From NCBI GenBank assembly GCA_951406725.2, contig OX597833.1, positions 1,116,001 through 1,180,000 of the forward strand: a stretch of DNA of 64,000 nucleotides, in the 5' to 3' direction. Origin of the DNA: Octopus vulgaris (taxonomy: Eukaryota). The position numbers and the translations under genes are program-made. Numbering within the stretch: the stretch's first letter is position 1; each line of letters opens with the position of its first letter. Below, one piece after another: positions 3,908-64,000 of the stretch. The notes below the pieces were generated by a model. That model worked only from the letters and a program-made list of their open reading frames with translations, did no database searches and was not told where the DNA came from.

Positions 3908-3943
3908 CTTTCTGTAGAAGAATGTAGGCTCGAAACGTAAAAG
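3908..3943 (+). ncRNA. Minimal hammerhead-like motif, ACGT family (variant core)
   Basis: cttt CTGTAGA a gaat-gtag-gctc GAAA cg TA aaag; stem II damaged; an inverted sister copy lies at about 4160-4195. Confidence 0.5.
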
Positions 3944-4266
3944 ACTTTTCCTATTCCTGAGCGTTATACTAATACATCTGTTTGTTTTGTACACCACCTG
4001 TATTCGTCTTTTGTTTTCTTCGTAAACTATCCCTATAAATATATATATATGTGTGTGTGTGTGTGTGTGTGTGTGTACATATATAATTGAAATTTACAGA
4101 AAAACAGGTATATAAACAAGCAGGTGTATTAGATTGATGCTCGGGAAATTGAGAAAGTATTTTATGTTTCGAGCGTACGCTCTTCAGCAGACAGGAACAC
4201 GATACACACGCGCATATACATATTTACGCACCGCAAGTAGAAAACTACTGTGTGAACAATTCTTAC

Positions 4267-4571
4267 CTGAGAATTATACACCTGTTTGGCAACAGCCTTT
4301 ACAATACCAATGACAATAGGTTCGAGACCCGGGCGGTCTGAGTAATAATGCAGTATCGTTGCTCCATCTTCGGCCCTTTCTGAGCATCTGAAAGAAGGAG
4401 CGCGCATACCTGGATAAATGCTGGCAAGATGGTCGTGTAGCGCATCTAAGTTCTGTAAGAAGTCTTTTGTGGTACCTCCAAGGACTTGCAGGATTTTATC
4501 GTAACCAGATTCTTGACAAAAGGCAAAAAACATTTCTCCAAACAATTCTAAGATGTCGCTAGCCGGAAGTT
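4267..4571 (-). CDS. GUCY1B1: Soluble guanylate cyclase beta subunit, H-NOX heme-binding exon
   Basis: ttgcag|AA...CAG|gtaaga; 305 bp; [27 protein letters not shown] (heme His), [17 protein letters not shown] (YxSxR). Confidence 0.97.
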
Positions 4572-4724
4572 CTGCAACAATGAAGAATATCGATTTCAAA
4601 TTTTGGGGAATCATAGGGTTCCATAAGGTAAAAAATGGTTGAGGTAACCGGGTCTTGAAGGACAATAATAATTACAACAACCACGATTGCCAGAATAAAC
4701 ATGGAATATGAGGAAATTGCTTAC

Positions 4725-4825
4725 TTAGAACTTTCGAAGCGGCACCAACCAAATCGTAGGAAATGGAATCGTCGTAGACATATCGCACCAGGAAGTGGCC
4801 ATCCATACTTAAATCGGCGGCTTTC
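4725..4825 (-). CDS. GUCY1B1: Soluble guanylate cyclase beta subunit, N-terminal H-NOX exon
   Basis: cccaatag|G...CTAA|gtaagc; 101 bp; KAADLSMDGHFLVRYVYDDSISYDLVGAASKVL, matching beta1 FLVRxxYDDxxxYDLVxAASKVL. Confidence 0.95.
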
Positions 4826-4921
4826 CTATTGGGAAAGAAAACAAACATGCATAAATACAGATTTATATACATATACTTACACACACACACACACACACGC
4901 ACACATACATACATATATATC

Positions 4922-5302
4922 TCTCTATATATAAACGGCAGTTTGTCTGTGTGTGTTTCTGTGTGTCTGTTAGGTTGTACCCTCACCCTGACCACGGCTT
5001 TCAACCGATTCTGATGAAACTTGACACACACATAGCCCAATGTCATAATTCAAAACTAACGCAGCGAAAATTTTGAAAAGTTCCCCCAGTTCTGAAATAA
5101 ATCGATAAATTCGACATGTGGTCGAGAATCAGAAACATAAACCGCAAACTGTCTAGGGGACGCAACTCGACCTTTTTTTACTCTCAAAAAAATTTACCAT
5201 CATTTTTTTCCATTTTTTTGCTATTTTTTAGCTATAACTCTCTAAATATGATTTATAGTTATTTCCCTTACAAACCTGAGCAACGCCGGGCGATACTGCT
5301 AG
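4922..5302 (+). mobile_element. Non-autonomous Helitron
   Basis: 5' TC(TC)TATATATAAACGGCA; 3' GC-rich hairpin region (gagcaacgccgggcg) then terminal CTAG followed by T. Confidence 0.75.
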
Positions 5303-5319
5303 TATATATATATATGTGA

Positions 5320-59778: not shown

Positions 59779-60926
59779 AGGTATAAGTTCATATATCTGC
59801 CTTGTGAGCAGATTTGGTAGACGGAAACTGAAAGAAGCCCGTCGTATATATATATGTGTGTGTGTGTGCCTTTGTATTTATGTTTGTAGGCTCCCACCAC
59901 CATCGCTTGACAACCGATGCTCCGGTATATATGTCTCCGTAACTTCGCGGTTCGACATAACGGCGGTCAAATTTCTGAAACGCGTAAAAGAATAAAATAA
60001 TGTGTGCGTGAGTATGTGGGTGTGTGTGGGTGGGGGGAATTATGTATTATAATTTAAAGTTAGGCAAACTTTGAATTACTGAAAGTCTTGAAAACTTTTT
60101 AATTATGGATGAAACATAACGAACAATCGTAAGACTTGTGTGAGCAGACAAAATTTTTGTCTTTCAGAAGTGCCGGAAATGGTGGAATACGCTTCCTATT
60201 GAAGCCAAGGAACTTATTCAATTATTTAACATTTTTAAAAGCAGCCAGTGAATCATGGTGCTTCTTTAAACAAGAATATGTATATATATATATATATATA
60301 TATATATATATATATATATATATATATATATATAAGAGAGAGAGAGAGAGAGAGAGAGAGATAGATAGATAGATAGATAGATAGATAGATAGATAGATAG
60401 ATAGAAAATGGGTGAGAGAGTAAGAAAGAGAAAGATAGAGATATAAGGAGAGATATCAAGTGACAGATAGAAAAAAGGTATATGTCTGTATGTCTGTGTG
60501 TTGGTGTATGTGTGTGTGTGCATGCATACCTTCGTACATACACACGCATAGACAAATACTCACATACGCACATTCACTCACATACAGTCATACACTCACA
60601 GACTCACACACACACATAGTCATAGACAGACATTCACGCATGTAAATATTCATTTACATATATATATATATATATATATATATATATATATGTATGTATG
60701 TATGTATGTATGTATGTATGTATGTATATGTATTATATATATTATTGCTTACCAACCACATGGTCCTGGGTTCAGTCCCACTGCGACGCGAGCCACCTTA
60801 GAGAAATGTCTTCTGCAATAGCCTCAGGGCGATGAAAGCCTTGTGAGCGGATTTGTTAGTCGGAAAATGAAAGCCCGTCGCCTTATGTGTAGCTATATTT
60901 TTATATATATATATATATATATATAT

Positions 60927-61340
60927 ATCAAAATAAAAACATGATGCCAAGGATTCAGCGGTACATATGTTTCGGGCCTTTATTAGACAGATTTATAACA
61001 ATGCATAATGTATGTCTGTGGCCTTTTTCAGCCGCGCACAACAGCTTCCACAAGGACATGTGTTACATCAAAAATTCTTGGTTGGGGATGCAAATCCTCT
61101 CATTCGCGTACGACATAATGCGGCAACAGCATAGAATTGAAGCGTCCATCTCTTTCTTCTCTCAATGTAGAATTTGCATCCCCAACCAAGAATTTTTGAT
61201 GTAACACATGTCCTTGTGGAAGCTGTTGTGCGCGGCTGAAAAAGGCCACAGACATACATTATGCATTGTTATAAATCTGTCTAATAAAGGCCCGAAACAT
61301 ATGTACCGCTGAATCCTTGGCATCATGTTTTTATTTTGAT
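60927..61340. mobile_element. Inverted-repeat element with two CATATG-family hammerheads (60958-61035 -, 61232-61309 +)
   Basis: 169-bp arms 60927-61095 and 61172-61340 around a 76-bp spacer; homologous to 49600-49868 and 37578-37790. Confidence 0.88.
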
Positions 61341-61887
61341 CAATTTATTCCACCACCTACACCACCAAACGGTATACACAGGTGCTTATAATTATCAAGT
61401 ACTCACTCCGAATTTATATATATATATATATATATATATATATATATATATATATATATATATATATATATATATATATAAAAATGTATGTATATATACA
61501 TTTATATCATACACACATACACACACACATATACGTATTATTTATGCTTATATACATGAATGAATGTATGGATATCTGTGAGTTTCACTGGCATCAATTT
61601 TTGAACCGCAGCCATGTTTTGGCAACACTTTGAAGTGTTTTACTTGTCTATTTTGATCAAAACAATTTATTTAGTTCTAAAATTATCACTCTGGATGCAG
61701 TATGAATTTTCACTGCGTGCATGCGAGAGTTTGCTTGCGCGCTAGTTCCCATGTATGTGTGAGAGAGAGAGAAATCTAATCTGAAATCTAATAGAACATG
61801 GTTAAAATTGAACATCGGGTCCATTTAATCCCGTAACCGTTACATCCATCATCATCTTTACCCAAATAATGAACTACAAGTGAAACC

Positions 61888-62070
61888 CCTTTCTTTACTA
61901 CCCACAAGGGGCTAAACACAGAGGGGCTAAACAAGGACAGACAAACGGATTAAGTCGATTATATCGACCCCAGTGCGTAACTGGTACTTAATTTATCGAC
62001 CCCGAAAGGATGAAAGGCAAAGTCGACCTCGCCGGAATTTGAACTCAGAACGTAACGGCAGACGAAATAC
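61888..62070 (-). mobile_element. Head-less SINE family 2 unit with target-site duplication
   Basis: Starts at GTATTTCGTCTG; flanked by aagtgaaacc on both sides. Confidence 0.85.
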
Positions 62071-62559
62071 AAGTGAAACCGTCACCCAGATAGATATATG
62101 ACCCTTATAAAACTTGAACATATGATTCAATTATTCATAAGGGAAGCAAAATTTGTAAGGGTTAACTCCCATTTAAACCACTAAAGAACCGTACACGTCT
62201 AGGTGGATATAAAGGACAACATTGAAATATTGATAATCATGAAACTACCTGAAAGAGACGGGAAACGATGTCTGTGAATCCTGACAGGGTGTGAAACTAC
62301 AGAGAGAATTTTTCTCCGTGTTAACTGCAATAGATATGCGTTTTAACAGTTGGATCGTGTTACACACATGTGTCAACTGACCTAAACTTTGCTTATGCCT
62401 AAACACTGCTTGGCGGTAAAATTACGGTAATATCCACGACGTCGGTGGCCGACTAGTGCAAATCAGTCGATGACAGATAGATAGACAGATAGATAGATAG
62501 ATAGATATATAGATAGATATATAGACGGACAGACAGACAGACGGACAGACACACAGATA

Positions 62560-63112
62560 CATAAGTTTCTTTATTGGCCACACAGGGCTGCACGCAGATG
62601 GGACAAGTTACAAGGTAGAGCTTTTCTTTTGGGGGATGAAAAAAATGGGGTGGCGTAGGTTTTCTATCAAGAGGGATCGTAAAAGGGAAGAAAAGAACAA
62701 AAAAAAATAAAAAATGAAAAAAATAAATAGAATAAAAAATAAAAAGAATAAAAGAAAAAAAAAGGGAAAGGAACAAAAGAAAAGAGAAATGAAAAAAGAA
62801 GAAAAGGGGGAAAAAAGGGGGAAGAGGAAAAAAAAAGAAAAAAGAACGATCAATAGGGATCGTGTATCACAGTGTTATGATATATGGTGTAAAGGGGAAA
62901 GCAAGTAAGGTTTATCCGTGGGAAGAAAAGCCTACGAAAAAGACCACGGTAACCTTGGTCAATATTGTTATATGTTACCACATTTGTTTGCAAGTGGGTA
63001 ACCCTCTGTTTTCAATTTCTGGGTTCATAGGATCATGCTCAAGGTGGCTTCGTCATTCATACGTGCCATCCTTGCTACATTCACCCATCTTTTTTTAAAA
63101 CATTCGCTAGAC
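62560..63112 (-). mobile_element. Probable L1/Tx1-type LINE 3' end in a GATA/GACA microsatellite
   Basis: Short ORF end SECFKKRWVNVARM...L*, pyrimidine-rich 3' UTR, AATAAA near the end, acacagata on both flanks. Confidence 0.45.
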
Positions 63113-64000
63113 ACAGATAGATAGATACATACATACATACATACATACATACATACATACATACATACATAGTGAGAATTTACAAAAATACAAACGGCAA
63201 AGACGGGTATGGAAACAACAAATAGATGTATTAGTTTAACGCTCGGGAAGTGAGAAAGTCTTTCACGTTTCGAGCCTACGCTCTTCGACAGAAAGGAACA
63301 GAAATAAACAGGGTGAGAAAATAGAAAAAAGGTTTAGTATATATATATATCTATTAGTATATATTTAAAAGCCATTTCGCTAATTCCGGAGATATGTATA
63401 CGTCTATGAGTGCGTGCGTGGTCATAAGTTGCACTCATCTCTCTCTCTCTCTCTACATATATATATATACATATATATACATACATATATATATATATAT
63501 ATATATATATATATATATATATATATATATATATATATATATATATATATATATATATATATATATATATATATATATATATATATATATATATTGTAAA
63601 CAGACAGAGAGACAGACATACAGACAGATCCGTATTTGACCATTCTCTCAATATATACCGATTTGTCCAGTTTCAATACATTTTCAGAGATATTGTTTTT
63701 CTTGTGAATGCTGTTTAACGAATCGCTTGAATGGTCCATTTCTTGCCACGACCGAACATGTTACCAAATGCGCACCGTTTCTCATTATCACACACACACA
63801 CACACACACACACACACACACACGCAAACACATACACAACACGCACGCAGATGCAGTCACGTACACGCTGTCCGTCTATCTCTTCTGCCAATTGTACAAA
63901 TATACGTATGTATATATATCTATATATATATATATATATATGTGTGTGTGTATGTATGTATGTATGCATGTATGCATGTATGTATATATCTATGTATGTA

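Follow-up and report, generated by a model that had tools for sequence, protein, structure and literature searches.

Why does one stretch of octopus DNA carry hammerhead ribozyme motifs of so many different kinds? The stretch, here called the window, is the 64,000 nucleotides from 1,116,001 to 1,180,000 of contig OX597833.1 of Octopus vulgaris (GCA_951406725.2; assembly size 2.8 Gb), and positions below count from its first letter. An earlier note, made from the letters alone, had taken the motifs for the marks of at least five unrelated families of short non-coding retroelements. We find that these type I hammerhead motifs belong to the terminal repeats of some nine families of Penelope-like elements (PLEs), lettered here A to I. 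The repeats probably entered (TA)n tracts through the action of PLE reverse transcriptase-endonuclease (RT-EN) proteins, which would have used three kinds of RNA template. One of these would be the spliced messenger RNA (mRNA) of the element itself, which the PLE enzyme likely copies back into the genome.

The simplest answer would be chance matches in AT-rich, microsatellite-rich DNA. The window is repeat-rich, our descriptor is loose (a hammerhead core with one mismatch permitted), and shuffled sequence does reach 2-3 matches. However, the window gives 10 matches, against a mean of 0.25 +/- 0.54 and a maximum of 2 in block-wise dinucleotide shuffles of it (n=40). A genome sample of 40 x 10 kb (400 kb), picked at round coordinates, gives 19 matches, against 0-3 in 8 shuffles. 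The enrichment, which the earlier note had anticipated, is 40-fold in the window and 12-fold in the sample. Motif density in the window is about three times that of the sample, and extrapolating 19 matches per 400 kb gives roughly 10^5 motifs genome-wide, with wide error.

Two tests, which drop the palindrome rule and the stem rules, avoid circularity. With the first rule dropped, 8 of the 19 strict-core matches of the 400-kb sample are perfectly palindromic, compared to 651 of 11,546 (5.6%) background strings. With the second dropped, stem I has at least 3 bp in 17 of 30 candidates, against a partner-swapped mean of 2.0 and maximum of 9 (2000 swaps), and stem II in 19 of 30, against a mean of 4.5 and maximum of 11. 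Stem sequences are wholly unlike between families, yet the pairing holds, as had been claimed. Given this enrichment, the independent palindrome and pairing tests and conservation across families, we regard chance as a negligible explanation. Stems I and II pair around the type I core CUGANGA / GAAA / UH, which is canonical in the majority of B, D, E and G copies, and the motifs have the short palindromic helix III typical of PLE pseudo-long-terminal-repeats (pseudo-LTRs). Loci of the 400-kb sample (L245-L284) also hold at least a dozen more hammerhead families, with recurrent U4C and U3-A8 cores. An Rfam scan of the window showed no hammerhead family among the best 150 of 360 matches, which are microsatellite and hairpin microRNA noise.

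What are these motifs part of? Families E, B, F and A are the ends of protein-coding PLEs, of Hydra and Neptune type. The genome contains many GIY-YIG frames, among them intact 781-codon Neptune-type RT-EN frames, and the end repeat of one PLE family with such a GIY-YIG frame has an identical hammerhead layout. For E, six loci selected for long frames show a parent frame of 835-842 codons (one 936) with the motifs RWA, ADKTG, YRDD and CxCx5C, and with CCHH absent. The hammerhead lies 1.7-2.0 kb past the stop in 4/6 of these loci, and about 200 nt ahead of the frame in 2/6. Judging by these motifs, which match section 11 of Craig et al. 2021 (PMC8557442), and by the (TA)n targets, the E parent appears to belong to the Hydra clade. 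Intact 842-codon frames of this clade are present in several copies (L315:738-3263 and others), and the family was likely active recently.

Of 8 long B loci, 7 have a Hydra-like RT/EN upstream in the same orientation, and two of the long loci (L386, L383) have the order hammerhead, open reading frame (ORF), intron, hammerhead. The B parent protein matches the E frame at 32-47%. For F, a Neptune-type RT-EN is found 360-680 nt upstream in 3/20 loci, with a parent at about 55-60% to L061. For A, one locus (L266) has a Cx4CxxC plus GIY-YIG frame upstream. The Neptune-type Cx2-5CxxC linker ahead of GIY-YIG is present in L061 and L266, a motif that is common to Nematis too. L061 represents a young Neptune-type family (L061:406-4087, L061:4788-5172). 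Many of its 781-codon RT-EN frames are intact, and it has a second frame, of about 360-386 codons, further upstream; its end repeat keeps GAAA-ACATGT, and no CUGANGA was seen in it.

The link count leaves out one F copy, a nested insertion within an RT frame (L219/L321). At L321 (G000:C6:4823500-4833000) this copy sits in the RT frame of its own family, in TA-rich codons beside the catalytic DD motif. Naiad parents, a candidate taken from Craig et al., were set aside, as the linked frames all have a C-terminal endonuclease, in a comparison that included no search for Naiads themselves. For H, homology extends at least 880 nt upstream, with no linked RT/EN in 30 short and 8 long loci.

These links bear on the version of the earlier note, in which every family is a short non-coding ribozyme retroelement in its own right, without a coding parent. 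What was seen of D and G agrees with it, copies of A, B and C are mostly shorter than 350 nt, and no ORF was found for H. On the other hand, E, B, F and A run into RT/GIY-YIG frames in other copies, which refutes it for E and B, and for the whole set we consider it very unlikely. The note was right that the window itself lacks an RT ORF, with no PLE RT/EN match anywhere in the 64 kb. Of the linked ORFs that it proposed to look for, those of E, B, F and A exist elsewhere in the genome, and that of H was not found.

How did the copies get to where they are? We compared 30 genome loci for each of five families (D, A, E, G and B), chosen as best matches to the window copy. A microsatellite lies next to the 3' end in most copies (D 29/32, A 33/34, B 33/39, E 32/34, G 27/32), in agreement with the (TA)n targets first proposed. 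The 3' end of a family is fixed at one or two positions beyond the hammerhead, where the copy meets (TA)n. Counted past the predicted cut, these ends are at +185-203 in D (23/32), +92-107 in A (33/34), +35-54 in E (22/34; a second group near +120), +150-171 in G (19/32; a second near +275) and +130-133 in B (a second near +217). The 5' ends are variable and often folded back as inverted arms. No tandem period was seen in A, B, E or H beyond single adjacent insertions.

This anatomy, with the repeat on both sides of the ORF (L386, L383, L318, L197), inverted 5'-truncated copies and fixed 3' ends with an optional tail, is the PLE insertion signature described by Craig et al. The two end points fit the internal two-site RT start reported in vitro for the Anolis Poseidon PLE (Frangieh et al. 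2024, PMC11167929). Poseidon also resembles the octopus families in its AT-rich target, an RT start downstream of the hammerhead and an uncut RNA template; its available text does not address introns.

From which RNA were the copies made? In family B an intron of 700-905 nt, GTATGT ... TTTTAG (GT-AG), ends 13 nt before the hammerhead core. Short B copies have the two exons joined exactly, with the intron precisely missing. A search pattern placed directly 5' of the B hammerhead gave 27 matches, with 15 unspliced (one reads GA for GT), 11 spliced and 1 rearranged. Genome-wide there are 511 spliced against 136 unspliced junctions (3.8 to 1), counted with one-mismatch patterns of 28 and 30 nt, which give lower bounds and count inverted pairs twice. 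In each of the first 30 exact spliced matches, exon 1 is cut down to about 12-37 nt, and in no case does the copy run as far as the ORF. Among unspliced matches, the first 30 exact ones extend 0-1512 nt, with a median near 190. The two classes share their end points, +214-228 and +306-321, which both precede the ATG at +348 (28/30 spliced, 23/30 unspliced).

Family C has a similar picture. The exon-exon junction is found in 18/20 copies and the intron end in 2/20, in a sample made of the first 26 of 229 matches minus three inverted pairs. Exon 1 of C followed by GTATGT occurs in 14 exact matches elsewhere in the genome. The exact loss of a GT-AG intron can be copied only from a sense, spliced RNA, and the B and C copies therefore speak for such a template. 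With moderate confidence, we favour a routine process in which the PLE RT copies the 5' end of the spliced sense mRNA, from an internal start back to the cap. This would mass-produce intronless hammerhead mini-copies, and full-length copies would come only from unspliced RNA.

Alternatively, the intronless B and C copies could stem from one or a few masters, spread like short interspersed elements after a single loss of the intron, and would then be uninformative on any routine use of spliced mRNA. The 3.8 to 1 excess of spliced junctions fits this idea. So does a tree of 71 spliced and 41 unspliced B sequences (200 nt each), where the splice label is clustered beyond shuffles (23 changes, against 32.6) and some supported clades are all spliced. 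The same tree, however, has at least 7 changes forced by supported branches, two identical-sequence sets that span both classes, and, in a bootstrap that had not settled, 0% of trees with the spliced copies as one clade, as a single change would need. Exon-1 variants (AAGTTAA, AAGATAA, CGCT) are likewise present in both classes. The clustering is inflated by a skewed sample, with 30 loci chosen because they resemble the window copy and with inverted pairs entering twice. Even with a single master, spliced sense RNA must have been reverse-transcribed once. We hold a master-copy origin to be improbable.

Both B copies of the window belong to the spliced class. The first (6880-7109, plus strand) is a Hydra-type PLE end with (TA)n flanks, its junction at 6897/6898 and its hammerhead at 6908-6971, with stem III ACGATCGT. 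The second (48389-48637, minus strand) has a mutated stem III and adjoins the 5' end of an E copy. The first copy and its flanks (5381-8248) have an inverted counterpart of at least 2.9 kb about 215 kb away (L107, G000:C20:1336513-1339728), with 99.7% identity, which is either a recent segmental duplication or an assembly duplicate. In family A (loci L077-L106), 30/34 copies stop no more than about 110 nt upstream of the cut site. This stop may mark the transcription start, as in family B.

Families D and G have a different organization. In all 32 D copies, what follows the hammerhead continues into what precedes it, with a period of about 427 nt, and G shows the same circular permutation with a period of about 525 nt. 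Both are closed short units with no room for an ORF. They consist of a non-coding repeat unit with one type I hammerhead, and on this basis we describe them as retrozyme-like. For them the non-coding mini-elements of the earlier note stand; E, B, F and A join coding PLEs elsewhere in the genome. D has 271 pattern matches genome-wide, with at least two pairs 428-429 nt apart among 100 of these, and most copies are single. Four contig sets cover a D copy without piling up at starts or ends, a signal that contigs cannot give, and this coverage speaks neither way.

The window D insertion (35952-36701) consists of two head-to-head arms of the 427-nt unit, with canonical hammerheads at 36180-36251 (minus) and 36429-36499 (plus) and stem III ACCGGT. 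The G copy (47877-48265, plus) is part of a unit, with its hammerhead at 48039-48110 and stem III ACAATTGT. This copy, at 48043, opens stem I with an A-C mismatch, where other family copies pair TCTA/TAGA.

Non-LTR retrozymes of about 170-400 nt were described by Cervera and de la Pena 2020 (PMC7229834), and Li et al. 2026 (bioRxiv 10.64898/2026.07.22.740005) derive retrozymes from PLE repeats, with cephalopods unmentioned in the available text. D and G resemble these elements in being non-coding and circularly permuted, in having one type I hammerhead and in a probable dependence on PLEs. They are slightly longer (427 and 525 nt) and are known here from genomic copies. Unlike retrozymes, they occur for the most part as scattered partial copies, with 3' ends fixed as in PLEs, inversions, (TA)n junctions and few tandem dimers.

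Do the hammerheads still cut? Family A departs from the canonical core, with U at position 6 in 14,944 exact matches and A in 158. All copies, in all families, span the uncut site, so the template is uncut RNA. These two observations would suit a reading in which most hammerheads no longer cut and the fold is kept as a binding signal for the PLE protein, with the palindrome as a leftover or a dimerisation handle. The young 781-codon Neptune-type family, with its GAAA-palindrome and no CUGANGA seen, points the same way. In vitro, hammerhead mutants left Poseidon insertion unaffected (PMC11167929), and 8/9 Xenopus dimers failed to cleave (bioRxiv 10.64898/2026.07.22.740005). Against it, most B, D, E and G copies have the canonical core, and in A position 7 varies freely while the remaining core is fixed. 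In F, 18/23 copies have a compensated U3-A8 core, as have three other families, and a compensated pair points to selection on catalysis. A loss of cutting in most families is therefore possible but rather doubtful, and it would be compatible with the explanation by PLE templates.

Taken together, the observed structure, linkage, end points and junctions suggest the following scheme, of which the enzymatic steps are proposed. The RT-EN protein would nick AT-rich (TA)n DNA and start complementary DNA synthesis inside the RNA, downstream of the hammerhead. An unspliced read-through RNA would give long, truncated, intron-bearing copies. On a spliced mRNA, the same start site near the 5' end would give intronless copies of 230-350 nt that stop at the likely transcription start or cap. 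A circular or multimeric RNA of 427 or 525 nt would give the permuted D and G copies, as retrozymes. The hammerheads are predicted to cut as dimers through the palindromic stem III (PMC4209133; PMC6765202), and some families may no longer cut.

Several observations sit badly with parts of this account. Its basis is genomic DNA, with cleavage and circles as predictions and the transcription start deduced only from 5' ends of copies. Three spliced B copies, found with the longer pattern, extend about 60 nt upstream of the junction. The B tree covers 200 nt of near-identical copies, with an unsettled bootstrap, and no single C copy was seen with the whole intron. The link of A to its parent is one locus, 68-73% like other A copies. 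No coding parent was found for H, C, D, G and I, with C seen only as 247-nt pieces and I not followed. Only 2/7 isolated motifs fold hammerhead-like better than most shuffles, with mixed z-scores, and the minimum free energy folds of B, C and F lack the three-way junction; single-strand folding is a weak test for motifs thought to fold as dimers. Finally, the junctions here lie at internal TA-rich motifs, and the in vitro study of Poseidon, in its available text, reports no homology between RT start and target.

As for the individual sites, the five listed as canonical in the earlier note all exist, with cores at 6911(+), 36245(-), 36435(+), 48043(+) and 49763(+), and 13/13 of its variant sites are copies of these families. 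Five belong to A (3908, 4160, 45972, 50304 and 63260, core CUG-U/C-NGA), and the rest to C (12922/13022), E (37630, 60958/61232), F (46890), B (48539) and H (54781). Every listed site is thus real, although two copies were missed, at 34301(-) and near 58567(-). The families are less distinct than was stated. D and F share the stem III ACCGGT, C and G share ACAATTGT, and B and C, far from being unrelated, are 82-86% alike in their 3' part.

Family A, a Neptune-type PLE end, has five copies in the window. The copy at 3834-4050 (plus), with core CTGTAGA and a damaged stem II, lies within an intron of a guanylate cyclase gene. Those at 4111-4200 and 50208-50411 (both minus) are degenerate and have lost the palindrome. 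The copy at 45865-46046 (minus) has the core CTGTAGA (U at position 6), intact stems and stem III ACGT, and that at 63153-63367 (minus) has the core CTGTCGA and a G at position 17.

Family E is present as a 5'-truncated Hydra-clade PLE end at 48651-49872 (plus), with a canonical hammerhead at 49759-49836 and stem III ACATATGT, a copy that extends 1.2 kb into the 3' untranslated region (UTR) of the parent. An inverted pair at 60919-61432 has both cores G8A, at 61031(-) and 61236(+), and a diverged copy at 37570-37791 (minus) has the core CTAAAGA (G5A). Family C forms a fold-back insertion (12707-13173) with a near-perfect 358-bp inverted repeat (12816-13173). Its hammerheads, at 13022-13067(+) and 12922-12967(-), have the core CCGAUGA (U4C in this copy) and the spliced-type junction GAAG/GTC.

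The F copy (46849-46975, plus) is also folded back, a Neptune-type PLE end with core CTGAAAA. Family H (54599-54924) is split by an inversion into a core half (54599-54768, minus) and a GAAA-ACAGCTGT half (54764-54924, plus). The two additional copies are a hammerhead-like I copy at 34192-34310 (minus), with core TTGAAGA at 34301 and stem III ACGGCCGT, and a U3-A8-type copy, TTGACAA ... GAA ACCGGT, at approximately 58545-58600 (minus).

The left end of the window contains, on the minus strand, exons of soluble guanylate cyclase beta-1 (4827-4258, 3166-3002 and 1041-733; overall 733-4827), with 97% identity to the Octopus sinensis protein. The gene runs on leftward beyond the window. Its first 25 codons were not located in the window upstream of 4827, which bears on whether the elements are intronic or intergenic. 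The remainder is AT-rich and microsatellite-dense, with a run of 100 N around 8250-8350. Tandem arrays at 13544-14741 and 23021-23980 are built of a 184-nt unit (also 139/296-nt) with up to 99% identity, and the descriptor finds no hammerhead in them. Short frames at 7992-8360, 33545-34006, 40712-41089 and 42060-42377 resemble by eye what we take to be C-terminal fragments of ORF2 of long interspersed elements.

How much of this is already known? PLE hammerheads, palindromic stem III and retrozymes are, and the octopus set is a rich further instance. Cervera and de la Pena 2014 (PMC4209133) described minimal type I hammerheads in PLE pseudo-LTRs, and giant squid has 235 hammerhead loci (PMC6962438). 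As in the 2014 study, we find many families per genome, a palindromic helix III, an extra nucleotide after A9 and the U3-A8 variant, as well as opposite-strand pairs 100-700 bp apart and mostly single truncated copies. An intron ending beside helix I is also shared, there in Drosophila virilis Penelope. In contrast, octopus stem III is longer (4-8 nt palindromes) and stem II reaches about 80 nt. That work predicts a spliced RNA form, and its available passages describe no spliced genomic copies.

Craig et al. (PMC8557442, File S2) include Hydra-1_Obim of Octopus bimaculoides, with a type I hammerhead. In line with their elements, the parents of E and B carry the Hydra motifs and insert at (TA)n, and a Neptune-type zinc-finger linker is found in A, F and the 781-codon family. 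Compared by eye, E and B differ from Hydra-1_Obim in the start and the hammerhead, and their 3' UTRs of 1.2-2.4 kb are unlike those of the published elements. PLE intron retention, a recognised hallmark of these elements, is left unexplained there, and the word “spliced” has 0 occurrences in the available text and supplement.

Intron-retaining Penelope was described by Schostak et al. 2008 (PMC2377424) and Arkhipova et al. 2013 (PMC3846280). As in Penelope, the octopus intron comes soon after the start site, within the terminal repeat, and is retained in long copies. Unlike in Penelope, it is ten times longer, and precisely spliced short copies outnumber intron-bearing ones. We found no report of spliced or intronless genomic PLE copies, including in the literature on octopus and cephalopod hammerheads, in a search whose coverage left out most subscription papers, Repbase, Dfam and bioRxiv supplements. 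The paired spliced and unspliced genomic copies of a PLE appear to be new.

The roughly 15,000 exact copies of a non-canonical core make family A a ready test of the role of cleavage in the spread of these elements. Families B and C are a natural test of template choice in PLEs. To explain intron retention, Arkhipova et al. proposed an antisense template and, in the passages concerned, left an unspliced sense template open. If true, the routine copying of spliced sense RNA would mean that PLE intron retention cannot be due to an antisense-only template. Coding PLEs could then also give rise directly to short ribozyme elements.

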